Part shown: in pieces, positions 3,716 through 63,748 of the stretch
How positions within the stretch are numbered: the stretch's first letter is position 1
Layout of the letters: every line of letters starts with the position of its first letter
Assembly (NCBI GenBank): GCA_003194485.1
Contig: PQXD01000003.1
Coordinates: 33,067-97,066 of the forward strand
Source: Deltaproteobacteria bacterium
Lineage (GTDB): Bacteria > Desulfobacterota > Dissulfuribacteria > Dissulfuribacterales > UBA3076
Direction: 5' to 3'
DNA: 64,000 bases
Program-made: the position numbers and the translations under genes
Notes under the pieces: model-generated
Seen by the model: only the letters and a program-made list of their open reading frames with translations
What the model was told of the DNA's origin: nothing
The model's database searches: none

Positions 3716-3764
3716 GCCTGCCTGTGCGTGGCCGCACGCAGACATGTGCGACGCACAGGCAGGC
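3716..3764 (-). terminator. GC-rich nested hairpin downstream of the 93-aa gene
   Basis: GCCTGCCTGTGCGT (3716-3729) pairs perfectly with ACGCACAGGCAGGC (3751-3764). An inner CGCAC/GTGCG stem lies within the loop. Only a weak, displaced T-run follows on the minus strand. Confidence 0.3.
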
Positions 3765-12677: not shown

Positions 12678-13077
12678 GTAAATATTCGGTGAACCCGTTA
12701 TATCCTGCCTTGAAGCGGTTACCTTTTTCCGGGTTTCAAAGCTCACTCATCGCGGACCGGAGAGGCAGTGCAATCCGGCCCGCGATCGAAACCCTGCAAA
12801 AGGCAAACCGCTCCTGCGGCAGGGCGCGGATGGCAACCGTTCACAGGAAGGGGATATTTCTTTGAACAGTTTATAACGGAAGCCCCCGTAGTTTTCTCGG
12901 CTTTTGCTGTGGGGGAAACTGCATCGCCTTAAGCGCAGCGTAGGGCGAATGCAGAGGGGGCAGGACATCCCCCATGTCAAAAGCCTTAAGAAAACAAGGG
13001 GCTGAAGTGTGAAGTGAAAAGAAATATCCCCTGCCAGTGAACGGTTACGTAGGGTCACGGGTTCAGCGAATATTTAC
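12678..13077 (+). mobile_element. MITE copy A (400 bp, full modular form)
   Basis: The TIRs are GTAAATATTCGGTGAACCCGT and the reverse complement GTAAATATTCGCTGAACCCGT. An exact 8-bp direct duplication TTCAAAAT flanks it at 12670-12677 and 13078-13085. Confidence 0.85.
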
Positions 13078-25647: not shown

Positions 25648-28600
25648 CTATCCTCCTCCCAGATGCCTGATAAGGGCATCTGCTGCCTTCTCAAGGCCTA
25701 CGGCCCGTGATCCCTTTACGAGTATAATTGCCGGGGAAGGCATGCAATCAAGAGCGTCTGATTCTATCCATGAAAGCAAATCCTCCGTGTCGGGGAAGAT
25801 GCGGATAGCCTCTTGCGAAATACCCGCCTTTTTTGCAGCCCCGGAAACAGTATCAGCAAACCGGCCTGCTGAAACTAAAAGATCAACCCCTGTTTGGGCT
25901 GCAAGCCGTCCGAGATCCTGATGAAACTTGCGAGCGGCATTGCCGAGTTCCAGCATGTCTCCCAGGATCGCTATCTTTTTCTCGCCCCTGCTCCAGAATT
26001 CGAGGGTCTCAAGGGCCGCTCTCGCAGAACCGGGATTTGCATTATAAGAATCGTCTATCAGCCTCCATCCGGATCCAAGATTCTTCAGAAACAGACGGCC
26101 CGGAACCGGTTTCACTTCCTCAAGCCCCTGCTTTATACTGACCGGCTTCAGCCCCACTGCATGGCCTGCAGCCGCGGCTGCAACGGCATTCTGCACGTTC
26201 GCCTTACCTATGAGGGAAAGATCGACAGAGAGCCTGCTTCCCGCGATATCCAGGTCCAGCAGAGTGCCATGCTCGACCGGGGTCCAGGACAGGCAAGTGA
26301 TTGCAGCTTTGAGCTTTGAGCTTTGAGCTTTGAGTTGGGGATTGGGTGTCAGAGAATAACCCACTATCCGGCACGTCAGATCTTTTGCCCCTTCAGTAAC
26401 CAGTGGGTCGTCAAGGTTCATCACTGCCACACCCGTCCGGGGAAGGGCTCTCCAGAGTCCCCATTTTTCTTCGGCCACTTCTTTTATGCCCCCCAGGCCG
26501 ACAAGATGGGCAGGCTGTATGGTAGTAATAAGGCCCGCTTGCGGCTGAGCGATTTCGCACAGCCGGGATATCTCTCCGGGCCGGTTCGTTCCCATCTCCA
26601 GCATTACCCAGGAGTCATCGGTTTTGGCCGAAAGCAGGCTGAGGGGAAGTCCGATAAGGTTGTTGAAATTCCCCGGGGTCTTAGCCACTTTCCATTTCTT
26701 CCCCAGGATCGAGGAAATCAGTTCTTTTGTTGTGGTCTTGCCGCAACTACCTGTAATGCCGATCACCTTGATTCCGAGGTATTCCCTGTACCATGATGCG
26801 AAGTCTCCCAGGCTCTTCAAGGTATCCTGAACTTTCAACAGGACCGGACGGGATCGAGGGCTGAAAGCCGAAAGTCCAGGGTCAGGAATCGAACTGACTA
26901 CGGCACCAACGGCGCCTTTTCTTATGGCTTCGAGGACAAAGTCATGGCCGTTGAAGCGGTCCCCTGGAAGCGCCCAGAATATATTCCCTGTTCTCACCGA
27001 TCTGGAATCTGTTGATACGCCATGGATTGATATGTCAGGATCACCCGAAAGGACTCGGGCTCCAATGGCCTTTGCCACCTGGGAGGCCTTTAATCGAAAT
27101 CCCTGATCCTCAAGAACCTCTACTTTTGACTCTTGTCTTTTATTCCCTGAACCCTGAACCCTGAACCCTGAACCCTGAACCCTGCCTTTTGACCCAAAGG
27201 CCTCTTTCAATACCTCTCTATCGTCAAAGGCAAATCGCCCGCTGCCGATTATCTGGCATGTTTCGTGGCCCTTCCCTGCCACCAGCAGGCAGGCGCCGGG
27301 GCGCGCTCTTTCCGCCGCCCATGATATGGCGTCCCTCCTGTCCGGAATTACCTTCACTTTTGCTCTGTTTGCAGGATGATGAGGCGGAAGGTCCCTGAGG
27401 CCGTTCAACATCTGCTCGAGTATGGCAAGAGGGTCTTCAGTGCGGGGATTGTCAGAGGTCAGCACAACAATATCCGCGAGTGAAGCCGCTGCCTGCGCCA
27501 TAAGAGGACGCTTACTCCGGTCCCTGTCCCCACCGCAGCCGACTACGCAAATCACGGGCCTGAATCCTAATGTAACAAGGCTGTTCAGGACACATTCAAG
27601 GGCATCAGGTGTGTGAGCATAATCTACAAAAGCAGTCACTCCATTGGGAGTGCACACAGGATCGAGTCTCCCCGGAATGCGCGTCACTGATTCTATACCG
27701 GCCTGAATATGGTCCGTATCTATCCCGAGGGCGATTGAAGCCGCTACTGCTGCAAGGATGTTATAGAGATTATAGGAACCCGTAAGCCTGGATCTGAAAG
27801 AAACAGGCCCTCTGGGCGTGACAAGCCTGCCTGTTATTCCATCAATATTGATGGACTGCGACTCAGGCCTCACCTCGGCCTCAGGACTGAGACCATAACT
27901 GATCTTTTCTTTTTGCAGAATCTCCCACAGTCGCCTTCCATGGAGGTCATCAATATTAATAATTGCCGCACCAGAGGGATGCTCCAAAAACAGTTTTGCC
28001 TTAGCCCGGAAATATCGTTCCATGTCTTGGTGATAATCCAGGTGATCGCGGCCCAGATTGGTAAAGACAGATGCGGCGAAACTGCACCCGGAGATCCTTC
28101 GCTGGTCAATGGCATGAGAAGATACCTCCAAGGCCGCCGCTTTTACTCCTTGTTCCAGCATATCTGCCAGAATCTTTTGCAGTCTTACGGCATCCGGGGT
28201 GGTGAGTTCGGAAGGTACCTCCACACCTCCATGTCTCCTGTTTATAGTCCCTATTACACCAGGGTTCAGTCCGGCTTTGCTGAAGATTCCTTCCATGAGA
28301 TATGTGATCGTGGTCTTACCATTAGTGCCCGTAACGGCTACGAGGTCCATTTTTTCACTGGGGTTTCCATAAAAGGCACTTGCCAGGAGGCCGGTTGAGA
28401 GCCTGGGATCGTCAACCCCTATAACAGGAAGTGTTCCAGGTACGGATTCGATATAATAACGTCGGGCGTCCTGGCCCGGCACTAACAGGACAGCGGCTCC
28501 TTTCTCTACGGCATCACTGATAAATTGTCTTCCGTCAAATTCAGTGCCTGGAATTGCCGCGAATACGTATCCCTGCTTCACCTGCCTGGAGTCTGCGGAT

Positions 28601-31636: not shown

Positions 31637-32078
31637 TGGCCCCGAATTTAGCAGTGATACTGCTGCTGTACTCGTCAAAGTTATCCCTCGTTTTTCGCAA
31701 CTCTTTGTCCAGGTTATCCTTGTTCGAGACCTCGAAGTAAGTAAGCATGCCCGAGAGGACCACATCCTTGGTAAGCCCCGCTTCTTCACGGAGCCTCAGA
31801 GGGATCAATATCCTTCCCTGGCCGTCCAAGGGACATTCCGCTGCTGCTCCCAACAAATACCTTTTAAAGGCGACGACCTCAGGAGGTCCGAATTGGAACC
31901 GGCTGAAATGCTCTTCTATTTTTCGCCATTCTTCAAAAGGATAAGCTGCGAGACAGGAGGGCAGGTTGGTGACTATCAACCGGCCATCGTATTTTGCCTG
32001 CAAGACCTCTCTGAAACGGGCCGGGATGCTGAGACGGCCCTTGGCGTCTAAGACATGGGCCGACCTTCCCCTGAACAT
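31629..32078 (-). CDS. mraZ: transcriptional regulator MraZ
   Basis: Duplicated SpoVT/AbrB-like halves with DAKGRLSIPARFR and DGQGRILIPLRLR. Confidence 0.93.
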   Translation of the reverse strand: MFRGRSAHVLDAKGRLSIPARFREVLQAKYDGRLIVTNLPSCLAAYPFEEWRKIEEHFSRFQFGPPEVVAFKRYLLGAAAECPLDGQGRILIPLRLREEAGLTKDVVLSGMLTYFEVSNKDNLDKELRKTRDNFDEYSSSITAKFGASG

Positions 32079-32086
32079 TGCCTTTT

Positions 32087-32105
32087 ACCCCACTTTATCC
32101 CACCA
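32087..32105 (-). promoter_or_regulatory. possible MraZ-box pair (GTGGG repeats about 11-12 bp apart)
   Basis: The minus strand reads GGTGGGATAAAGTGGGGTAAAAGGCAATG directly upstream of the mraZ ATG. Confidence 0.3.
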
Positions 32106-32359
32106 TTTTCTAACATTTTTTAATATATTGAAATAAGAAATTGTCTGTCAAGAGAATCGAGAGACAATTTAATATAAATATTACAGTATGTTATATAAAT
32201 AGAGCCACGGTTTCCTCTATTTTTCTGCGATTATCTTATGAAAACAGTGATTCTTAAAAATTGAGATGGAACCATATAAATCACCTCTGATTTTTGTATC
32301 GGGAAACAGTATCATATACTTGAAACTTTTGAAATATTTTTTTGATTATTATTTGGTGA

Positions 32360-33514
32360 TTAATAAGAAAAAGACTGGTGGTTTAAAGTGGGGGAAGATG
32401 GAAGAGCGGTTTGTGATAGATCAGGTTTGATTTCTTTTCTGGGCCGGTATTTACGTCGGCGTTGATACTGATCTACCGCCCTGTTGTGTTCATCCAGGGT
32501 CCGGGAAAAATAATGTGTTCCGTTGTTTTTTGAAACAAAATAGAAATAATCCTTTTTTGATGGATAGAGAGTCGCCCTGATGGACTCCTTACCCGGATTT
32601 GAAATCGGCCCTTTGGGGAGACCTTTGTTTACGTAAGTGTTATAGGGGGTGGCTTTTCTGAGGTCTTTCCACCTGAGACGGCGCTTCCTTACCCTGGTTT
32701 CCACAAGTATCCCGTAATGAACGGTTGGATCTGCCTGGAGAGGCATATTCTTTTTTAGCCGATTCCAGAATACACAAGCAATTAACGGCCTTTCCCATGA
32801 TTGCATAGCCTCTTTTTCCACTATGGAAGCAAGTATTACTATATCGTGGACTTTAACACCCAATTCTTCTGCTCTGCTGCTGAATCCTTCTGAATTCCAT
32901 ACTCCCCAGAAACGGTTAACAAAGGTTCGGAGCATCTCAAGTTCCGTGGCGCCCTTGGTCAACTGATAGGTATCAGGGTAAATATAGCCCTCAGCACTAT
33001 CAGCCTCTATGCCAAGGGTCTTCAAGATCTTACGGTTCCTTGCCACCTTGAGGAATGAATCGCCGGATGTCAATTTTGCATTTTCAAGAAGGCCGTTTAT
33101 TTGAAACAGGTTATAGCCCTCGGGGATGGTGACAATATACTGGCGGGTCTTTCCCTGGACCAGATAATCCAGGATCTCTACAGGCGTTTGGGTCGGGGAA
33201 AGTTCGTATTCCCCTGCCTGGATCCTGGTTGTTGCATTTCCCCACCAGGCAAGGATATAAAAATACCTTTTGGATTTTATTAAGCCTTCTGCCTCAAGTA
33301 GCTGTACTGCCGAGGAGAAGGTGCTCCCTGTGGGAATTATTATGATCTTATTTTTTCCCGTTTCCGAAACGGGCAGGGTACATCCTTTCCATATCTGATA
33401 ACCGGACAGAAAGATTAAGTAGAGCAAAATTGGCAACCAGAATTCACGTATTATGCGCATATTCTTTAGATCGGATTTTTCAACAGAATCATGTTCAGGG
33501 TTTTTGTAATGCAA
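32360..33514 (-). CDS. mltG: endolytic murein transglycosylase MltG (YceG family)
   Basis: N-terminal TM segment, EGYIYPDTY, ILASIVEKEA and YNTYVNKGLPKGPISNPG motifs. A C-terminal tail of about 40 aa follows. Confidence 0.88.
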   Translation of the reverse strand: MHYKNPEHDSVEKSDLKNMRIIREFWLPILLYLIFLSGYQIWKGCTLPVSETGKNKIIIIPTGSTFSSAVQLLEAEGLIKSKRYFYILAWWGNATTRIQAGEYELSPTQTPVEILDYLVQGKTRQYIVTIPEGYNLFQINGLLENAKLTSGDSFLKVARNRKILKTLGIEADSAEGYIYPDTYQLTKGATELEMLRTFVNRFWGVWNSEGFSSRAEELGVKVHDIVILASIVEKEAMQSWERPLIACVFWNRLKKNMPLQADPTVHYGILVETRVRKRRLRWKDLRKATPYNTYVNKGLPKGPISNPGKESIRATLYPSKKDYFYFVSKNNGTHYFSRTLDEHNRAVDQYQRRRKYRPRKEIKPDLSQTALPSSPTLNHQSFSY

Positions 33515-33538
33515 TCAGGTCATTAATAATAGAGAATT

Positions 33539-33934
33539 GTAAATATTCTTATGAACCCGTCCGTGGTCCACTGCGCAGACCGTTCACTGGCAGGGGATAT
33601 TTCTTTTCACTTAACACTTCAGCCCCTTGTTTTCTTAAGGCTTTTGACATGGGGGAGTCTTGCCCCCTCCCCGTTCTCCTTCGCTGCGCTCAGGAGCCGG
33701 GGTTTCCCCCACAGCAAAAGCCAAGAAAACTACGGGGGCTTCCGTTAAACTGTTCAAAGAAATATCCCCTTCCCGTGAACGGTTGCCATCCGTGCCCTGC
33801 CGCAGGAGCGGTTTGCCTTTTGCAGGGTTTCGATCGCGGGCCAAATTGCACTGCCCCTTTCGGTCTGCAATGAGTGAGCTTTGAAACCCGGAAAAAGGTA
33901 ACCGCTTCAAGGCAGGATATATTAGAATATTTAC
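33539..33934 (-). mobile_element. MITE copy B (396 bp, inverted relative to A and C)
   Basis: Near-identical to copy C across module 1 and the hairpin module. The flanks AGAGAATT and GAAGAATC are only partly similar. Confidence 0.85.
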
Positions 33935-33948
33935 GAAGAATCTTTCGG

Positions 33949-34593
33949 TCAGCCTGTAACATCTCTGATATCTTTAGGGCTGATAGCCCCCTCCCGTATA
34001 ATTTCAGGAGGATCAATACTTACATCTATGATCGTGGATGGAGGCCCTCCGGATACAGGACCCCCATCCAGTATATAGTCAGGGGGTGTAGACCGTAATT
34101 GATCCGCAACTTCCTCGGCTTTACAGGCGGCAGGGTGTCCTGAGAGGTTTGCACTGGTAGCGGTCACGGGGTTTCCCAGGATTGTCACCAGTGAATGTGC
34201 CCATGGATGGCTGGAAATCCTTACACCTACCTTGCCTGTATCCGCACAGAGCGGCCATGGCAGCCCGGGTCTGGCCGGTAAAAGCAGGGTCAAGGGGCCC
34301 GGCCAGAGACGCTCCATCAAGGCAACCGCTGCCGGCGGAACCCGGCTGGCCAGATGGATGAGATCCGAGGTATCTGAAATGAGGACCAAGAGCGGCTTGT
34401 GTCTCGGCCTTTTTTTGATTACATATATTCGTTCAAGGGCTTCTGTTTGAATTATTGAGGCCCCAAGCCCATAGCTCGTTTCGGTGGGAAAGGCTACTAC
34501 TCCGCCCCTCTTAATTATATCCGCAGCCAGCCGGATCAATATGCGGTCAGGTGACTGTACCATATCGTAATTAAAAAACAAGTAAGCGCTCAC
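33949..34593 (-). CDS. tsaC: L-threonylcarbamoyladenylate synthase (TsaC/YrdC/Sua5 family)
   Basis: YrdC-domain motif GGVVAFPTETSYGLGA. The true start is probably the ATG at 34563 (MVQSPDRIL...). The GTG at 34593 lies inside the MITE target duplication. Confidence 0.85.
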   Translation of the reverse strand: MSAYLFFNYDMVQSPDRILIRLAADIIKRGGVVAFPTETSYGLGASIIQTEALERIYVIKKRPRHKPLLVLISDTSDLIHLASRVPPAAVALMERLWPGPLTLLLPARPGLPWPLCADTGKVGVRISSHPWAHSLVTILGNPVTATSANLSGHPAACKAEEVADQLRSTPPDYILDGGPVSGGPPSTIIDVSIDPPEIIREGAISPKDIRDVTG

Positions 34594-34595
34594 GG

Positions 34596-34996
34596 GTAAA
34601 TATTCTTATGAACCCGTTATATCCTGCCTTGAAGCGGTTACCTTTTTCCGGGCTTCAAAGCTCACTCATCGCAGACCGGAGATGCGGTGCAATCCGGTCC
34701 GCGATCGAAACCCTGCAAAAGGCAAACCGCTCCTGCGGCAGGGGGCACAGATGGCAACCGTTCACGGGCAGGGGATATTTCTTTGAACAGTTTAACGGAA
34801 GCCCCCGTAGTTTTCTTGGCTTTTGCTGTGGGGGAAACCCCGGCTCCTGAGCGCAGCGAAGGAGAACGGGGAGGGGGCAAGACTCCCCCATGTCAAAAGC
34901 CTTAAGAAAACAAGGGGCTGAAGTGTTAAGTGAAAAGAAATATCCCCTGCCAGTGAACGGTCTGCGGAATGGACCACGGGTTCACCGGATATTTAC
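34596..34996 (+). mobile_element. MITE copy C (401 bp)
   Basis: The TIRs are GTAAATATTCTTATGAACCCGT and the reverse complement GTAAATATCCGGTGAACCCGT. An exact 8-bp duplication GCTCACGG flanks it at 34588-34595 and 34997-35004. Confidence 0.88.
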
Positions 34997-35009
34997 GCTC
35001 ACGGAACGT

Positions 35010-35095
35010 TGGAACTGGAAAATGGGAATTGGGAATTTGGCCTTTACGCTTTTGTTTCATCTCTGCCGAATTTCTAATTTCCAATCTCAAGTTCC
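35010..35095. repeat. heptamer-array hairpin element overlapping the purD-purE stop
   Basis: The arms GGAACTGGAAAATGGGAATTGGGAATTTGG and CGAATTTCTAATTTCCAATCTCAAGTTCC pair. The loop is homologous to that at 7551-7572. The last codons ELEIGN* of purD-purE lie in the right arm. Confidence 0.8.
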
Positions 35096-36882
35096 TCTAT
35101 CTCTTTTGCCTGGGCCTCTCTGTATTCCTTCAATTTCCTAGCAAGGTCCCGGTCTTCCAACGCCAGGATCTGAAGTGCCAACAAGGCGGCATTTTTTGCT
35201 CCGGCTTCTCCTATTGCCATGGTTGCAACCGGAACGCCGGGCGGCATCTGGGCAGTGGAAAGCAGGGCATCAATTCCGTTCAGTGCCGAATTGCCTACCG
35301 GCACCCCTATCACCGGAAGGATCGTATTCGCTGCCAGGGTGCCGGCCAGGTGCGCGGCCATTCCGGCGCCGGCAATCAGGACCTTTATCCCTCTGGCCTC
35401 TGCCTCCCCGGCGTATGACGCGGTAAGCCCGGGGGAACGATGGGCCGAGGCAACCCTCAACTCACAGGCTATGCCAAACTCGTTCAGAATATCCCTGGCC
35501 GCTTCCATAACCTCTTTGTCACTGAGACTTCCCATGACAATGCCCACCTTGGCGGTGCTGCCGGTATGCCGGTTTCCCGGCATACCGGCAGCACCGGACG
35601 TGTGTCTGAGAGCCTTTTGGCCGATATCCCTTCTATAGTGCATCCCCTCCCAGGAGATCTGTCCAACTGCTTCATATGCAAGGTCTATCGCCTCTGAAAT
35701 AGTATTCCCGAGTGCCGTAACCCCCAGGACCCTTCCGCCGGATGTGACGAATCGATCTCCATCCTTGGCAGTCCCTGCGTGAAAAACCATCACGTCTTGC
35801 ATCTCAGCCACTTTTTCCAGCCCGTGAATAACCTTGCCTGTCTCGTAATTTCCAGGATAGCCTCCGGAGGCCATGACAACGCAGACGGCAGTCCTTGGAT
35901 CCCACTCAAGTTTTATTTCATTCAGCCTGCCTTCAAGTGCTGCCTCAAATATCTCCATCAGGTCAGTGCGGAGTCTCATCAGGATCGGCTGGGCCTCAGG
36001 GTCACCGAACCGGCAGTTAAATTCCAGGACCTCTGGTATGCCATCTCTAATCATAAGCCCGCCGTAAAGCACTCCCTGATAGGGCCTTTTTGCCTTTGCC
36101 ATGGCTTTCACAGCGGGCCTCATAATGTTTTCCATAATATCGTCAAACAGGGCGCTGCTTACCACTGGTGCCGGAGAGTAGGCACCCATACCGCCGGTAT
36201 TGGGCCCCATGTCATTATCAAATACAGACTTATGATCCTGGGAAGTGGCAAGGGGAAGGACTGTCGTCCCGTCGGTTACAGCCATGAAGGAGGCCTCTTC
36301 TCCGGTGAGAAATTCCTCTACTATAAGTCGATTGCCTGCTTCGCCAAAGACCTTTTTGCGAAGGATAAGATCTATTGCCTCCTCCGCCTCGGCAAGGCTA
36401 TGAGCAAGCAACACCCCTTTGCCGGCCGCCAGCCCGTCCGCCTTTATTGCAACAGGCACTCCAACTATGCTCTTGACATAATCAAATGCGGCATCCGGAT
36501 CGGTAAAGACCTTGTAGGACCCTGTTCGAATGCCTGCTTCAGTCAGCAGTTCCTTTGAAAATACCTTGCTGGCCTCGATCTCAGCAGCCGCTTTAGTGGG
36601 CCCGAATACTGCAAGTCCATGCTTGCTGAAACTGTCTGCCAGGCCCTCAACCAGGGGGGCTTCCGGGCCTACAACCGTCATATCGATACCTTCCTTTTTG
36701 ACAAATGATACAAGGCCGTTAATGTCAGAGACCCTTAAGGATATGCAGGCGGCATGTTGACTTATGCCGGAATTTCCGGGCGCGCAGAATACTCTGGAAA
36801 TTTTGGGACTGGATGCCAGCTTCCAGCAAATGGCGTGTTCACGTCCTCCGGAACCTATTACCAGGATTTTTTTCTGATCCAT
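35074..36882 (-). CDS. purD-purE: fused phosphoribosylamine--glycine ligase (PurD) and N5-CAIR mutase (PurE), 602 aa
   Basis: The N-terminal part of about 425 aa is ATP-grasp PurD (KILVIGSGGREHA...). The C-terminal part of about 160 aa is PurE (VGIVMGSLSDKEVM...SAHRSP...GAGMAAHLAG). The two parts are joined by GAAGMPGNRHTGST. Confidence 0.9.
   Translation of the reverse strand: MDQKKILVIGSGGREHAICWKLASSPKISRVFCAPGNSGISQHAACISLRVSDINGLVSFVKKEGIDMTVVGPEAPLVEGLADSFSKHGLAVFGPTKAAAEIEASKVFSKELLTEAGIRTGSYKVFTDPDAAFDYVKSIVGVPVAIKADGLAAGKGVLLAHSLAEAEEAIDLILRKKVFGEAGNRLIVEEFLTGEEASFMAVTDGTTVLPLATSQDHKSVFDNDMGPNTGGMGAYSPAPVVSSALFDDIMENIMRPAVKAMAKAKRPYQGVLYGGLMIRDGIPEVLEFNCRFGDPEAQPILMRLRTDLMEIFEAALEGRLNEIKLEWDPRTAVCVVMASGGYPGNYETGKVIHGLEKVAEMQDVMVFHAGTAKDGDRFVTSGGRVLGVTALGNTISEAIDLAYEAVGQISWEGMHYRRDIGQKALRHTSGAAGMPGNRHTGSTAKVGIVMGSLSDKEVMEAARDILNEFGIACELRVASAHRSPGLTASYAGEAEARGIKVLIAGAGMAAHLAGTLAANTILPVIGVPVGNSALNGIDALLSTAQMPPGVPVATMAIGEAGAKNAALLALQILALEDRDLARKLKEYREAQAKEIEELEIGN
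35554..35595. repeat. perfect 42-nt palindrome (19-bp arms, 4-nt loop) forming the purD-purE junction
   Basis: In GGTGCTGCCGGTATGCCGG TTTC CCGGCATACCGGCAGCACC the arms are exact reverse complements. The sequence is 14 codons, in frame. Confidence 0.95.
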
Positions 36883-37092
36883 AATCTTCTCTTCCCCCTG
36901 TGTTTTTTTAAGAACAAGGCAGGCTAAAACTATCCGTATGATATAAAGGTGTCAACGCCTGTTCTGGTGATCTATGCTCTCAGATATCTGGCGTTCGGGA
37001 TAGTTGCGGTTTAGATTTGATAATGTTTGGGTAATCGCAGGATCATTGTGATTGTAATACCGTAATCGACGCCGATCTTGCTTGGCTGGAAC

Positions 37093-37289
37093 GTAAATAT
37101 TCTTATGAATCCGTGGTCCACTGTGGAAGTTGCCATCCGTGACCTGCCGCAGAAGCGGTTTGCCTTTTGCAGGGTTTCGATCGCGGGCCGGATTGCACTG
37201 CCTCTCCGGTCTGCGATGAGTGAGCTTTGAAACCCGGAAAAAGGCAACCGCTCCAAGGCGGGACTATAACGGGTTCTCCGGATATTTAC
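37093..37289 (-). mobile_element. MITE copy D (197 bp, short form lacking the internal hairpin module)
   Basis: Both TIRs and module 1 are present. An exact 8-bp duplication GCTGGAAC flanks it at 37085-37092 and 37290-37297. Confidence 0.88.
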
Positions 37290-37342
37290 GCTGGAACGGG
37301 ATAAATTGTTTCAGGGAACCAATAACAAAAGGCAGAAGGAAT

Positions 37343-38089
37343 ATGTACGCAGAACTTAAAAGAGCATTGAATGATATAGCCGCAGAAAATAGCTTACTTG
37401 AAAATGAAGTGAACATCACTGCAAAAATCCTGACACCCGAAGAAGCCATAGGCAAGACGGAAAGGAGGGATTTTCCCCTGCTTCAAGGCAGGGAATCTTT
37501 GATCCAGGCTGATTTCAAAGGGGCCTTGGGGCAGGCCTTTACTGACACCCCAAAGACCTTCAGAGGCAGACTCAAGGAAATACTCAAATTAAGATTAACG
37601 GATAACGGCAAGAGAGCGCTCTTTGTCGCTACGCTGAACGCACTGTTACGATATAAGTGTATAATTAACGACACCGTTCACTGCAAAGACAACGGGCCTG
37701 AATTATGCGCCGGGGAAATGGCCGGGGCAATCATTGAAAAATACGGACCTGATATCAACATCGGAATTGTCGGCTTTCAGCCGGCTATAATAGATAATTT
37801 TTCCAAGAGGTTGTCTGCGGAAAATATGAAGGTAACAGATTTTGATAAAGATAACATTAACAGGATTAAGTATGGGGTGCCTGTCTGGGATGGCAGAAAA
37901 ATGACAGAAGAACTCATTAAGACCTGCGACGTCATCCTGGCTACAGGCTCAACAATAGTAAATGATTCCCTGTCTCAGTTGATCTCTCTTTCAGGCAAAT
38001 ATCAAAAACCACTTTATCTCTATGGCACGACAATTGCCGGGGCCAGCAAACTCCTGAATCTGAAAAGGCTGTGCTTTCAATCTTCTTGA
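37343..38089 (+). CDS. DUF364-like Rossmann-domain protein (putative chelation/cofactor-handling family)
   Basis: The ATG at 37343 follows AAGGCAGAAGGA. The C-terminal pattern IGIVGFQP...CDVILATGSTIVNDSL...LYLYGTT resembles DUF364. The track ORF start at 37220 lies inside MITE D. Confidence 0.55.
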   Translation: MYAELKRALNDIAAENSLLENEVNITAKILTPEEAIGKTERRDFPLLQGRESLIQADFKGALGQAFTDTPKTFRGRLKEILKLRLTDNGKRALFVATLNALLRYKCIINDTVHCKDNGPELCAGEMAGAIIEKYGPDINIGIVGFQPAIIDNFSKRLSAENMKVTDFDKDNINRIKYGVPVWDGRKMTEELIKTCDVILATGSTIVNDSLSQLISLSGKYQKPLYLYGTTIAGASKLLNLKRLCFQSS

Positions 38090-38108
38090 GCGGACATTCA
38101 TAGCGGTT

Positions 38109-38242
38109 ATCATCCCGAATTATGCAGCAGCCAATTTTACCAAATCTGCTTTGTTGTCAGGCACTTGAAGTACAAAAGTACGTCTGCGTGCCTTCCGCCT
38201 CGCATCTTTGGCAAACTTGGCTGCTGCATAATTCGGGATCAT
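38109..38242. repeat. 134-bp palindromic element (36-bp arms matching at 33 of 36 positions, 62-nt loop)
   Basis: ATCATCCCGAATTATGCAGCAGCCAATTTTACCAAA (38109-38144) matches the reverse complement of TTTGGCAAACTTGGCTGCTGCATAATTCGGGATCAT (38207-38242). Confidence 0.85.
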
Positions 38243-38467
38243 ATCACGGCGAGAAGATCTTCTGCCATTTCATCCGCCTCCGTATGAGATTGTCATCTAT
38301 CCTGCCCCGCGTTTGCATTTTTTTCTTGACAGAAAAATCAAGAACTGATATTGCGCATACGTTTCAATTAAGGAATACCTTCCTGGATGTAATCCAAGAT
38401 AGAATACAAGAATTTCCTTTTGACATGCCGACACGATTTTTGTGTTGTGATATCTGGGGACTAAGGA

Positions 38468-38788
38468 GTGATCATGAAACAAAGGGGTGGCGCTTACGAC
38501 CCGTTCGACTGCAAACACTACCCGGAGGCCGATGTGGTCATGAGGCCAGGCATGCCTCTCGCTATGGCCTGCACTGGTGAAAAAGCGCGTATCGTAATGC
38601 TCGCAGGCGGCAGGGGGATGCACCAGAGGCTGACCAGCATGGGCTTGGGTGTGGGATCGGAGATCGAGATAATCAGAAGGGGGTCCCCGGGGCCTTTTCT
38701 GATAGCGACCGGCAATACGCGTCTTGCTATAGGGGCGGCTATGGCCCATAAGATCATGGTTATTCCAATGGAAAGGGAAATCGAATGA
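38468..38788 (+). CDS. FeoA-domain protein
   Basis: GEKARIVMLAGGRGMHQRLTSMGLGVGSEIEIIRRGSPGPFLIATGNTRLAIGAAMAHKIMV matches the FeoA SH3-like pattern. The real start may be the ATG at 38540. Confidence 0.65.
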   Translation: MIMKQRGGAYDPFDCKHYPEADVVMRPGMPLAMACTGEKARIVMLAGGRGMHQRLTSMGLGVGSEIEIIRRGSPGPFLIATGNTRLAIGAAMAHKIMVIPMEREIE

Positions 38789-38843
38789 CCATGGATAAAA
38801 TAAGGCCAGGCCACGGGTTGTTAATGACCGCTTTTTCTCTTTC

Positions 38844-40685
38844 TTGCAGGATGGTCTCCGGACACTGAAAGTACTCCAAGAAAAGAAAGGCCAAAAAGTG
38901 CCTGATATTCGGGAAATCACCTGGGTGTCAGAGACGGGTTCTACCAATGACCTTGCCAGAGAGAATTTTCAAAAAAGAGGGATTCTGTGGCGCTGTTTTG
39001 TTGCCGGCTCCCAGACCAGGGGCAGGGGTAGGAAAGGCCGGAACTGGATTTCTCCTCCCGGCACCGGCCTGTATCTGTCGATTGCTGTGCCAAGGCCCGG
39101 AATTCTGGAGGCCTGGCTCCCTCTAACCTGCGCCATTGCCTCATCGGCCGCCATACAATCCATTCTCACCAGGTCCCGCTGTGCCAGGCCGCCTTCTATT
39201 AAAATAAAATGGCCCAACGACCTGTATATTGAAAATGGAAAGTTGGCAGGTATGCTTTGCGAACTGGCAGACGGATCCGAAAGTCCTGCCTGGATAATCG
39301 GAATAGGCATAAACATTTGCACTCCGAAAAATGCCTTCCCGGAACATCTCAGGGAAAAGGCGTGTTCCATATCAAGCGCTACGGGTTGCCGGGTCTCCCG
39401 AGACTCCCTGCTTGAAGAACTGCTCGTTCATCTCTCTTTCTGGCTGGGAAAGATATATGAAGGCAATGTCTCGGCTATTTTGAATTTTATTGAAAAAACA
39501 GAAATAATGGGCATAATTCAGGGATCAGAAACCGGGCGGATCTCCAGCCACAGGCCCGCACAGCCTGACACAGGCGACCAGATCGCTGAATCAAGGATAA
39601 TACCGCAGATGCAGACAGATATCCGCAGGCTACAATCGTCAAATCGTCAAATCGTCAAATCGTCAAATCGTCAAATCGTCAAATCGTCAAATCCGCTGGG
39701 TATCACCATGGGCTGTCCGGCGGGAATCGGTCCTGAAATCATTATAAAGGCATTCGCTGCCAATCCTGAATGGCTGCTTTCACCTCCGGCAGTGGTCATA
39801 GGGGACATGAATATACTTAAAAAGGCATCAAGGGCGCTTGATATCGACATTCCCCTTAAGTCCTGGGTGCCTGGAGATCCCATTTCCGGCAGTGCGATAC
39901 ATGTGATTACACGGACAGACCTTAATGCCGAGGATATCCTTTGGGGAAAGCCGAACCCAGTCACTGGAAAGGCCTCTTTCGAGTATGTCACTGAGGGCAT
40001 CAGACTCTGCCTGGGAAAAAGTCTCTCCGGCCTTGTGACCGGCCCTATCAGTAAACTGGGCCTCAGGCTTGCCGGCATCTCCTACCCCGGACATACCGAG
40101 ATATTGGCCGACAGGACCAACACGGAAAGATATGCAATGATGCTGGCAGGCGACAGGCTCAGGGTAGCCCTTGTGACCATACACTGCCCCTTGAGGGAGG
40201 TGGCGGACAGCATCAGCACGGAAAAGATTTTTCAAGTAATTTTCCTTACGGATTCCTTCTTAAGAAATGAACTCGGCATAAAAGAGCCGGAGATTGCCGT
40301 GGCCGCACTGAATCCACATGGAGGCGAGTCCGGGATGTTTGGCAAAGAAGAAGAGCATATCATATCGCCCGCTATAGAAATGGCCCGGGGAAAGGGTATA
40401 GCGGCCAATGGGCCTTATCCTCCTGACACAGTGTTTTATCAGGCTGTCAATGGGAAATTCGACGCTGTAGTCTGCCAGTATCATGACCAGGGGCTGATTC
40501 CCTTTAAGCTCATTCATTTCAGAGACGGGGTCAACCTGACCTTAGGCCTTCCGATAACCAGGACTTCAGTAGATCACGGGACTGCATATGACATCGCCGG
40601 TACCGGAAAGGCGGATTGTGCCAGTCTTGAGGCGGCAATCAGACTCGCATCGAAGATAGTGGAAAAGAGAAAAGAAGGTCCATAA
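38844..40685 (+). CDS. birA-pdxA: fused biotin--protein ligase-like (BirA catalytic domain) and 4-hydroxythreonine-4-phosphate dehydrogenase (PdxA), 613 aa
   Basis: The N-terminal part has VSETGSTNDLA...AGSQTRGRGRKGRNWISPPGTGLYLS (BPL motifs). From ITMGCPAGIGPEII to the end is a complete PdxA. The junction reads QSSNRQIVKSSNRQIVKSSNP. Confidence 0.8.
   Translation: MQDGLRTLKVLQEKKGQKVPDIREITWVSETGSTNDLARENFQKRGILWRCFVAGSQTRGRGRKGRNWISPPGTGLYLSIAVPRPGILEAWLPLTCAIASSAAIQSILTRSRCARPPSIKIKWPNDLYIENGKLAGMLCELADGSESPAWIIGIGINICTPKNAFPEHLREKACSISSATGCRVSRDSLLEELLVHLSFWLGKIYEGNVSAILNFIEKTEIMGIIQGSETGRISSHRPAQPDTGDQIAESRIIPQMQTDIRRLQSSNRQIVKSSNRQIVKSSNPLGITMGCPAGIGPEIIIKAFAANPEWLLSPPAVVIGDMNILKKASRALDIDIPLKSWVPGDPISGSAIHVITRTDLNAEDILWGKPNPVTGKASFEYVTEGIRLCLGKSLSGLVTGPISKLGLRLAGISYPGHTEILADRTNTERYAMMLAGDRLRVALVTIHCPLREVADSISTEKIFQVIFLTDSFLRNELGIKEPEIAVAALNPHGGESGMFGKEEEHIISPAIEMARGKGIAANGPYPPDTVFYQAVNGKFDAVVCQYHDQGLIPFKLIHFRDGVNLTLGLPITRTSVDHGTAYDIAGTGKADCASLEAAIRLASKIVEKRKEGP
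39633..39694. repeat. tandem octamer array (CAAATCGT x6 plus partial units) at the birA-pdxA junction
   Basis: CAATCGT(CAAATCGT)x6 CAAATCC is read directly. Three units equal 24 nt and give the 8-aa peptide period SSNRQIVK. Confidence 0.95.
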
Positions 40686-52628: not shown

Positions 52629-52999
52629 GTAAACCGATTACAGGGTGCTTCTTTTTCCAACATGCTCTCGCCCCTTGTTTTCTGAGGCTTTTGCAGCCCG
52701 GGACCCTCCCCGTTCTCCTTCGCTGCGCTCCGGAGCCGGGGTATCCAGTTCTGCAAAAGCCAAAAAAACTACAAGGGCTAACGCAAATCGTTTCCAAAAG
52801 AAGCACCCTGTAATCGGTTTAAGTCCATTGTGCTTCGGAGTTGCCATCAGCACCCTGCCGCAGGAGCGGTTTGCCTTTTGCAGGGTTTCAACCGCGGGCC
52901 GGATTGCACTGCCTCTCCGGTCCGCGATGAGTGAGCTTTGAAACCCTGAAAAAGGTAACCGCTTCAAGGCAGGATATAACAGGTTCACCGAATATTTAC
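52629..52999 (-). mobile_element. MITE copy E (variant hairpin arms; left terminus divergent or truncated)
   Basis: Module 1 and the right TIR (reverse complement GTAAATATTCGGTGAACC) are conserved. The hairpin arms are replaced by AAACCGATTACAGGGTGCTTCTTTT / AAAAGAAGCACCCTGTAATCGGTTT. No target duplication is seen. Confidence 0.75.
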
Positions 53000-63490: not shown

Positions 63491-63748
63491 CTATTGAGTT
63501 AGCTCCGTTTCGATATATAGTCTTTGATTATTGGATAATCATCCCTTGTCCCTCCAATGCTCTCATCCCTTGTTTTCTGAGGCTTTTGCAGCATGGGACC
63601 CTCCCTGCTCTCCTCCGCTGCGCTCCGGAGCCAGGGTTTCCCATACTGCAAAAGCCAGGAAAACTGCGGGACTTCCGCAAGTCACTCCAAGGGATAATCA
63701 TCCAATAATCCGTTACAATTAGCATATGATGCGGAGCTAACTCAATAG
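63491..63748. repeat. stand-alone copy of the MITE core hairpin (copy F) with its own unrelated outer stems
   Basis: The core CCCTTGTTTTCTGAGGCTTTTGCAG...CCGCTGCGCTCCGGAGCC...CTGCAAAAGCCAGGAAAACTGCGGG is shared with copies A, B, C and E. The outer stem is CTATTGAGTTAGCTCCG / CGGAGCTAACTCAATAG. No TIR or module 1 is present. Confidence 0.75.

Follow-up and report, generated by a model that had tools for sequence, protein, structure and literature searches.

Multi-copy palindromic repeats include REP/BIME and Rickettsia palindromic elements, of which the latter are inserted in frame in genes. Kelchner and Wendel are said to have described, in 1996, minute hairpin-loop inversions in chloroplast non-coding DNA. 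Template switching makes and keeps perfect stems; the changes that it yields include paired ones as well as inversions of the loop (Mönttinen and Löytynoja 2022, PMC8794818). In Proteobacteria, correction turns imperfect inverted repeats into perfect ones (PMC5941160), and quasipalindrome-associated mutation is known from E. coli (PMC7202029). Coding genes of yeast show arm homogenization together with recurrent spacer flips (Abraham and Hazkani-Covo 2021, PMC8604942), and the inverted repeat of REG2 is a case in which the arm grew from 5 bp to 16 bp (PMC8604942). The locus presented here is not a new kind of system; the mutational mechanism proposed for it is already known. What it does offer is a clear case from nature, in an uncultured sediment bacterium, of a long perfect hairpin that was born inside a coding gene without insertion or capture.

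The hairpin is located in a fused purD-purE gene within a 64-kb stretch of DNA, referred to as the window. An exact cluster look-up showed the encoded protein to be identical to PXF55526.1 from a Deltaproteobacteria MAG. The PurD part (residues 5-425) scored 545.6 bits against TIGR00877, for which the cut-off is 288. The PurE part matched PF00731 over residues 445-593 and scored 193.6 bits against TIGR01162 over residues 446-597 (cut-off, 149.6). With both domains full-length and above the curated cut-offs, the ORF can be considered a bifunctional PurD-PurE fusion. More than 120 full-length fused homologues from Desulfobacterota, with identities of 59-100%, were among the matches listed; judged by these sequences, the fusion has a long history and occurs widely in Desulfobacterota. 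According to the linker alignment, the segment joining the two domains is hypervariable in sequence and length across fused homologues. Residues 429-442 have a pLDDT below 50 in the AlphaFold2 model, and the linker is predicted to be disordered and mutation-tolerant.

Table 1. Coordinates of the fusion gene, its domains and the elements of the hairpin in the window
Feature	Position	Strand	Basis
Fused PurD-PurE ORF, 602 aa, continuous	35074..36882	-	ORF list, Pfam GARS_N/A/C + AIRC, TIGR00877, TIGR01162
PurD (phosphoribosylamine-glycine ligase), residues 5-425	35608..36870	-	TIGR00877
Interdomain linker, residues 426-444	35551..35607	-	linker alignment, AlphaFold2 model
PurE (N5-CAIR mutase / AIR carboxylase), residues 445-597	35092..35550	-	PF00731, TIGR01162
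5' hairpin arm (mRNA sense) CGGTGCTGCCGGTATGCCGG	35577..35596	-	sequence, inverted-repeat search, folding
4-nt loop/spacer	35573..35576	-	GAAA in mRNA sense, TTTC on + strand
3' hairpin arm (mRNA sense) CCGGCATACCGGCAGCACCG	35553..35572	-	sequence, inverted-repeat search, folding

Window positions 35553-35596 form a perfect inverted repeat of 44 nt, consisting of a 20-bp stem and a 4-nt loop, with 20-nt arms that are 100% complementary. An earlier note on this DNA, made from the sequence alone, had described a perfect palindrome of 42 nt at 35554-35595, where the + strand reads GGTGCTGCCGGTATGCCGG-TTTC-CCGGCATACCGGCAGCACC. This was exact but understated, as the stem is one pair longer. Since the gene is on the minus strand, the loop in the mRNA is GAAA. 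The 14 codons of the palindrome are in frame and encode GAAGMPGNRHTGST, corresponding to residues 430-443. We agree with the earlier note that protein-level selection is an unlikely source of a perfect palindrome, and it does not explain this one. No longer hairpin exists in the window, in which the runner-up among perfect hairpins with loops of 3-8 nt has 12-nt arms. The maximum arm length in 30 first-order Markov simulations of the window was 8-11 nt, compared with the 20 nt observed, and a chance origin of the palindrome is excluded. For a 60-nt stretch, the predicted folding energy was -49.2 kcal/mol when treated as RNA (z = -9.5); the corresponding DNA value was -30.5 kcal/mol (z = -10.0).

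At least 12 independent samples, processed by different assemblers, yielded contigs that carry the palindrome, with small variants, at the same site; it is therefore not an assembly artefact. By our reasoning, a de Bruijn graph with a k of 21 cannot orient the spacer of a palindrome with 20-bp arms, and one variant, the paired change described below, derives from a single short contig. Nevertheless, it is hardly credible that the palindrome or its variants were produced by assembly or sequencing. The independent samples comprise JGI, ENA/MEGAHIT k141, SPAdes, Logan and NCBI MAG data, and the full 44 nt are spanned by reads and by larger k values. Furthermore, each spacer orientation was found in at least four samples, and the ancestral one matches all outgroups.

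A GC-rich stem with a 4-nt loop, placed exactly between two domains, looks like a terminator, and the earlier note had proposed a recently captured intergenic hairpin. It would have been a terminator or REP-like element between separate purD and purE genes that was captured at gene fusion. The comparison with relatives contradicts this. In six of them (L083, L084, L007, L089, L090 and L091) the linker has the same length and can be aligned codon by codon, and in relatives with 88-96% nucleotide identity it is non-palindromic and folds no better than shuffled sequence. RNA folding gave a z value of about 0 for each of seven outgroup lineages, whereas the sister lineage L083 reached -3.6 and haplotypes of the window's species ranged from -6.3 to -8.4; the structure is not conserved across orthologues. 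As the linker of the relatives is of the same length and non-palindromic, nothing was inserted or captured, and the palindrome came about in place through substitutions. The fusion is far older than the palindrome, and the fused relatives carry a linker that is homologous position by position. The chance that a hairpin was captured at gene fusion is consequently vanishingly small.

The substitutions that built the stem were placed by parsimony on an NJ tree. Along this tree the number of Watson-Crick pairs, out of a possible 19, was 8, 10, 11, 11, 16 and then 19. The last two branches, on which the palindrome was assembled, carry nine stem substitutions, all of them pair-creating; the side branches showed a mixture. 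When nine random substitutions were simulated from a starting point of 11 pairs, 16 or more pairs were reached with a P of 1.4e-5, and 19 pairs in 0 of 2,000,000 trials. An imperfect ancestral repeat thus turned more perfect, as in arm homogenization. The tree reconstruction gave no single contiguous tract of one arm converted in one event. Instead, the pair-creating substitutions were spread across both arms and two branches, and one pair was altered on both sides (C.T to T-A), so that several events are needed. The perfect stems are free of any G-T pair. Where L083 has its two G-T pairs, the window's species has G-C pairs; the reconstruction places the origin of the G-T pairs on L083's own branch, so they were not converted en route to the window. 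After the split, L083 acquired pair-breaking changes only (3 of 3).

It should be noted that the hairpin shares its perfect GC-rich stem, 4-nt loop and very high stability with intrinsic (Rho-independent) terminators. Unlike these, it lacks a U-tract, lies inside a continuous ORF, exceeds typical stems with its 20 bp and is not conserved in relatives. No U-rich tract follows the stem on either strand; the sense strand continues with GCCAAGGTGGGC and the + strand with GACGTGTGTCTG, and a terminator scan reported no site at the palindrome. The resemblance to a terminator or REP element seen by the earlier note does not hold, given this missing T/U run and the failure to find a further copy, two observations that also count against a captured hairpin.

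Single-copy status was established for the 64-kb window and for public collections. Allowing up to 3 mismatches, no further copy of the arm exists in the window. Among 185,579 species genomes (596 Gb), the 19-nt arm gave 34 unpaired chance singletons in unrelated taxa and no paired match. In the metagenome collection it gave 36 stretches, and both arms occurred together in only one of these (L055), at the same locus. A small mobile palindromic element inserted in frame, of the type of Rickettsia palindromic elements or REP/MITE repeats, would have dispersed copies and a length difference from orthologues. Neither multiple copies in the window, genomes or metagenomes nor an insertion relative to the six relatives, whose linker length is identical, was found. 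In-frame palindromic insertions are known in Rickettsia, and here, too, a palindrome lies in frame within a protein-coding gene that is not destroyed. A MITE-like intergenic repeat family adjoins the fusion gene, but the palindrome arm is not part of the flanking repeats. In contrast to REP/BIME and Rickettsia elements, the palindrome is single-copy, involves no insertion compared with orthologues and has no family among the genomes or metagenomes searched, which leaves a mobile element an exceedingly remote prospect.

Variation within the species was concentrated in the palindrome. In the rest of the gene (1765 nt), haplotypes of the species differ by 2-5 nt (0.1-0.3%), while the 44-nt palindrome contains 7 variable columns and an indel. 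The difference between palindrome and remaining gene was significant whether counted by columns (Fisher P = 2e-9) or by events (P = 1.6e-6). The palindrome is a local mutation hotspot in present strains. Its variants comprise a TTTC/GAAA loop inversion, an indel of a GCT triplet, a loop substitution and a paired C>T/G>A change. The spacer is polymorphic, with TTTC, GAAA and AAAA occurring in the species. TTTC, which is common to all outgroups and hence ancestral, was found in 4 samples, and GAAA in the window and 6 samples, meaning that the spacer of the window is inverted relative to the ancestral orientation. TTTC and GAAA are exchanged as an exact reverse complement between haplotypes that are otherwise about 99.8% identical, and the exchange swaps the linker peptide between VS and GN. 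Both spacer orientations are found with and without the GCT indel, which makes four combinations; as consensus contigs from metagenomes may mix strains, recurrent spacer flips are inseparable from recombination in these data. In a single short contig (L082, 2164 nt), a C>T change in one arm is accompanied by G>A at the paired position of the other, so the stem stays perfect; outside the palindrome, the gene of this contig shows 4 differences in 1765 positions.

This pattern resembles the inverted repeats of S. cerevisiae (PMC8604942), which are perfect, lie in ORFs and have 2-5 bp spacers that are inverted exactly, the flips replacing one or two amino acids and being apparently recurrent among close strains. 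The bacterial locus differs from them in its arms (20 bp versus 10-16 bp) and in its position in the interdomain linker of a fusion protein. In addition, triplet-slippage and paired-change variants segregate here in natural populations. With the chloroplast inversions it shares a short loop that apparently flips recurrently between perfect arms among close relatives, but those concern organellar, non-coding DNA, whereas here a bacterial coding sequence is affected and two amino acids are changed.

Taken together, we consider it probable that the palindrome is a young, lineage-specific perfect repeat that arose in place in the disordered linker of an old fusion, most likely via template switching. 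The data show that it arose in place, is absent from relatives and is single-copy, that pairs were gained directionally and that the site is a hotspot; the mechanism, as well as the view that the hairpin serves no selected function, is what we infer from the sequence patterns. The starting point would have been a chance quasi-palindrome in the Gly/Ala/Ser/Thr-rich codons of the linker, which may have become more self-complementary in steps until it was perfect. During replication, template switching could have copied one arm from the other in a hairpin, a process that homogenizes arms and can invert the spacer. The origin would thus comprise several conversions in both directions along with point mutations and no single template-switch event. 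Once perfect, the repeat would have turned into a local hotspot that gives rise to spacer flips, GCT slippage, loop substitution and paired changes on both arms. Stems made up entirely of Watson-Crick pairs are in keeping with DNA-level copying; selection at the RNA level would be expected to tolerate G-U pairs. It is likely that disordered linkers rich in Gly, Ala, Ser and Thr can seed such events, because their codons are mutual reverse complements.

Similarly to template-switch and quasipalindrome mutation (PMC8794818, PMC7202029, PMC5941160), the locus exhibits the change from an imperfect to a perfect repeat, multinucleotide changes, loop inversion, fully Watson-Crick stems and a mutational hotspot; a candidate for a further common feature is the paired change on both arms seen in one short contig. 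It departs from the described cases in affecting a protein-coding linker of an uncultured Desulfobacterota lineage, compared with an RNA gene or a laboratory reporter. Its 20-bp stem is very long, several steps on both arms are involved, and the mechanism is deduced from sequence patterns. We had also considered a single template-switch event in an L007-like ancestor, whose loop and 3' arm would have served as the template for a reverse-complemented copy that replaced the 5' arm and loop. It was dropped after the intermediates P0123/L083, P0136/L084 and P0127/L078-81 had been inspected, as the 5' arm (peptide AAGMP) is older than the loop inversion, and the changes are stepwise and on both arms. 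Sister lineages thus preserve intermediates of a process that appears to be still running, as spacer flips, triplet slippage and the paired arm change indicate. The locus is a caution against taking every perfect palindrome in a gene for a captured terminator or mobile element, and against reading all clustered non-synonymous or seemingly compensatory changes as signs of selection.

The perfect dyad symmetry could also reflect selection for a DNA-level binding site of a dimeric protein, such as a regulator or nuclease, and inversion of the spacer would be irrelevant to a symmetric binder. However, 20 bp of symmetry per arm is far beyond the needs of an operator, the palindrome is absent from relatives, and it is single-copy, the rest of the window containing nothing similar. 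The analysis pointed to no candidate protein that would bind there, and we know of no motif that matches the palindrome as a binding site. We regard a site of this kind as very improbable.

The directional gain of pairs would look the same if it were due to positive selection for a stable hairpin. The selected structure might be an mRNA hairpin at the domain boundary that slows ribosomes and helps PurD to fold co-translationally before PurE emerges, or a determinant of processing or stability that alters the relative outputs, with its substitutions fixed by selection. The nine pair-creating substitutions towards the window, the near-perfect stem in every haplotype of the species despite a varying loop, the compensatory-looking double change in one haplotype and the very stable stem (-49 kcal/mol as RNA) exactly at the domain junction are what such selection could produce. 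Still, we find it unlikely. All other sampled lineages with the same fusion lack the hairpin (z of about 0), and the sister lineage gained only changes that break pairs. Haplotypes are only about 0.2% apart, so that retention of the stem says little on constraint, and at such divergence it is implausible that paired sites were hit by point mutations independently of each other. All-Watson-Crick stems without G-U pairs and the exact loop inversion are signatures of the DNA level. A covariation count on 11 sequences gave a modest signal that is inflated by near-identical species haplotypes, with the structure taken from one haplotype, and for these reasons we did not use it as evidence of function. 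The earlier note had also suggested that stalling of ribosomes or RNA polymerase at the hairpin could modulate the ratio of PurD to PurE. Comparison with relatives lends no support to this idea, as only one species-level lineage has the structure and its sister lineage shows decay.

A further variant of selection would be a newly evolved boundary hairpin that acts as a translational pause or mRNA processing site and thereby adjusts co-translational folding or the balance between the two activities. The flipping spacer would then be a rapid, reversible switch between peptides (VS, GN and EN) or between loops (UUUC versus the GNRA-type GAAA). This scenario is distinctly improbable; if true, it would mean that a functional RNA structure was born by template switching inside a coding region. 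Neither the missing U-tract nor the upstream sequence favors a selected hairpin: the upstream sequence, CTC AGA CAC ACG TCC, contains no slippery heptamer of the type X XXY YYZ, which a stimulator of programmed -1 frameshifting would need 5-9 nt ahead of the structure. No Rfam family was matched either: in a scan of positions 32000-39000 with E values up to 1, the best match was a chance one to a miRNA precursor, with 22.9 bits compared with a gathering score of 95. The same scan also returned one weak, unrelated sRNA match.

The palindrome reported in the earlier note at 35554-35595 was confirmed, with the sequence GGTGCTGCCGGTATGCCGG-TTTC-CCGGCATACCGGCAGCACC on the plus strand, and the actual repeat proved to be one pair longer. 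It is the longest short-loop hairpin of the window, the runner-up having arms of 12 nt, and the longest arms in Markov-simulated sequences (n = 30) were 8 to 11 nt. Folding of a 60-nt stretch at this site yielded -49.2 kcal/mol (z = -9.5) for RNA and -30.5 kcal/mol (z = -10.0) for DNA. The palindrome is in frame within a continuous purD-purE open reading frame on the minus strand, so the loop in the mRNA is GAAA. Its 14 codons encode GAAGMPGNRHTGST, residues 430 to 443. An AlphaFold2 model of the fusion had a mean pLDDT of 85, falling below 50 at residues 429 to 442, which points to a disordered interdomain linker as the segment encoded by the palindrome. The fusion protein has exactly the sequence of PXF55526.1, which comes from a Deltaproteobacteria MAG.

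Coordinates of the fused gene, its domains, the palindrome and the MITE-like repeats
Feature	Position	Strand	Remarks
purD-purE ORF	35074-36882	minus	602 aa, palindrome in frame inside
PurD	residues 5-425	minus	TIGR00877, 545.6 bits (cut-off 288)
PurE	residues 446-597	minus	TIGR01162, 193.6 bits (cut-off 149.6)
Palindrome arms	35553-35572, 35577-35596		20 nt each, 100% complementary, 4 nt between
MITE-like copy	~12678-13045		
MITE-like copy	33561-33921		
MITE-like copy	34587-34979		
MITE-like copy	37128-37298		
MITE-like copy	52662-52999		
MITE-like copy	63557-63665		

A protein search with the fusion (E <= 1e-30) gave 8000 candidates. The best 120 of these 8000 were without exception full-length fusions (574 to 622 aa, GARS plus AIRC domains) with 100% to 59% identity to the query, and those with names were Desulfobacterota, including Thermodesulfobacteriota and Dissulfurimicrobium. 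In an alignment of 33 fusion members, the domains were well conserved and the linker was variable in sequence and length. From these comparisons, the fusion is old. Among the matches listed, the closest named relatives by fusion protein were Dissulfurimicrobium, Thermodesulfobacteriota MAGs and 'delta proteobacterium ML8_D'.

Linker DNA was compared from nine other lineages, whose nucleotide identity to the window, in the gene outside the linker, ranged from 95.5% (the sister lineage, L083) down to 75.8% (L094). The linker has exactly the same length in L083, L084, L007, L089, L090 and L091 and can be aligned codon by codon; in L007 it reads GGT GCG ACC AGC ACG CCG GTT TCC CCG CAT TCC GGC AGC TCT. 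Folding z-scores, calculated over 87 nt per lineage (75 nt for L093, which has a shorter linker), were close to 0 in seven lineages (L094, L091, L093, L090, L089, L007 and L084); L083 reached -3.6, and the window's species -6.3 to -8.4. The hairpin is restricted to one young lineage, with no insertion or capture. The earlier note had suggested a recently captured intergenic hairpin and a comparison with purD/purE of relatives. That comparison refutes capture, since the fusion is old and the relatives carry a same-length, codon-alignable linker that neither contains the palindrome nor, in the outgroups, folds. The note's further idea, that the hairpin could stall ribosomes or RNA polymerase and so modulate the PurD to PurE ratio, is speculative and unsupported.

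A neighbor-joining tree was built from the gene outside the palindrome, with the topology (((window, L079), L083), L084), L089, (L093, L007), L090, L091, L094; L079 is a same-species contig. Ancestral states were reconstructed by parsimony over 42 nt, and Watson-Crick pairs were counted out of 19 along the backbone. Their number rose from 8 at the root to 10 after the L090 split, 11 after the L007 split, 11 at the node common to L084, 16 in the ancestor of L083 and the species, and 19 in the species (haplotype H3). All stem substitutions created pairs on the branch to the L083-species ancestor (5/5) and on that to the species (4/4), side-branch changes had mixed effects, and the three changes on the branch of L083 itself all broke pairs. 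Nine random substitutions starting from 11 pairs reach at least 16 pairs with P = 1.4e-5, and 19 pairs were reached in none of 2,000,000 trials; pair gain is strongly directional. Pair-creating changes occurred on both arms and one pair was altered on both sides (C.T to T-A); a single event does not explain the origin. The 8 to 11 of 19 positions already complementary in the outgroups may reflect Gly, Ala, Ser and Thr codons being mutually reverse complementary.

Same-species contigs from at least 12 independent samples show 2 to 5 differences from the window over the other 1765 gene positions, and the 44-nt palindrome exists as six haplotypes. H3 (L078-L081, four samples) has a perfect stem and a TTTC spacer, oriented as in all outgroups, on the ancestral flanking-SNP background. 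The spacer is inverted to GAAA in H1 (the window), and in H2 (L001-L006, six samples) the inversion is accompanied by an inserted GCT (Ala) triplet in the 5' arm; H4 (L088) carries the insertion with the spacer un-inverted. In H6 (L055) the spacer is AAAA and the 20th pair is broken. H5, known from one short contig (L082), combines C>T in one arm with G>A at the matching position in the opposite arm, leaving the palindrome perfect. Variable columns numbered 7/44 in the palindrome versus 5/1765 outside (Fisher P = 2e-9; P = 1.6e-6 when counted by events). Spacer orientation and the GCT indel occur in all four possible combinations, and orientation conflicts with flanking SNP 747, implying recurrent events or recombination. 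Further linker peptide variants were seen in the 90% cluster of the window protein: TAAGMPGN in P0134, an EN loop peptide in P0130, P0132 and P0131 (the protein of the L055 contig), and an L>F change near this site in P0122. The true number of haplotypes is probably higher than six.

Template switching during replication at an inverted repeat would homogenize the arms and invert the spacer exactly, would alter paired positions in both arms together, and would leave stems that are fully Watson-Crick and a locally hypermutable site. The palindrome shows this pattern, with the paired change seen in one short contig (H5), and the match favors a mutational origin. The main rival is that selection favored a stable mRNA hairpin where the two domains meet. 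This would also fit the directional gain of pairs, but we regard it as unlikely, given that it lacks comparative support and leaves the DNA-level signatures unexplained. We therefore consider it reasonably probable that the palindrome arose by mutation in a disordered linker that tolerates change, and that no function need be invoked. Template switching is known to make and maintain perfect stems, give multibase compensatory changes and invert loops (PMC8794818). Coding genes of yeast show arm homogenization and flips of 2- to 5-bp spacers, some of them recurrent, that exchange one or two amino acids; one arm there expanded from 5 to 16 bp (PMC8604942). Imperfect repeats in Proteobacteria are apparently corrected preferentially to perfect ones (PMC5941160), and quasipalindromes in E. 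coli are hotspots of template switching (PMC7202029). We regard the palindrome as a new, unusually clear bacterial case of a mutational phenomenon that is already known, and not as an element of a new type.

Other identities were rejected. The likeness to a terminator did not hold, because neither strand has a T-run after the stem and a terminator scan gave no site at the palindrome. The palindrome matched no known RNA family, and no slippery heptamer indicative of a frameshift site was found upstream of the stem. Other copies, which the earlier note had proposed to look for, were not found: the 64-kb window held no further arm copy with up to 3 mismatches, the 19-nt arm occurred across 185,579 species genomes only as unpaired chance singletons in unrelated taxa, and its sole paired match in the metagenome collection was the same purD-purE locus. 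Over the window and these collections, the searches make a repeated or mobile element very unlikely. Independent assemblies from JGI, ENA, Logan and NCBI exclude an artefact, with the caveat that H5 is a single short contig.

The motif GCCTGCCTGT is common to two other inverted repeats of the window (3716-3764 and 27825-27868), one with 17-nt arms (94% complementary, 15-nt loop) and the other with 22-nt arms (73% complementary); they may be another small repeat or regulatory hairpins. Gene order around the fusion is kept across L083, L084, L089-L092 and L094, with a divergent DUF364 gene upstream, purD-purE and then Sua5/YrdC, followed by a YceG/MltG-like gene in L084-L087 and L090-L092. Window positions 32360-38089 contain the same neighbors, spaced apart by copies of a MITE-like intergenic repeat family (~370-400 nt, at least six copies in the window) with no Rfam match in 32000-39000. 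Inverted copies at 33561-33797 and 34743-34979 (237 nt, 98% complementary) flank the Sua5/YrdC-like gene just downstream of purDE, and a further copy lies just upstream. Since Sua5 follows purDE after ~20-40 nt in L083 and L084, the copies beside purDE look like lineage-specific insertions. Communities of hydrothermal or seep sediments are suggested as a recurrent habitat of the organism by sample and contig labels of L001-L006 and L078-L088, such as DOMB18-1, SPET22-1 and the JGI 33000214xx-215xx series.
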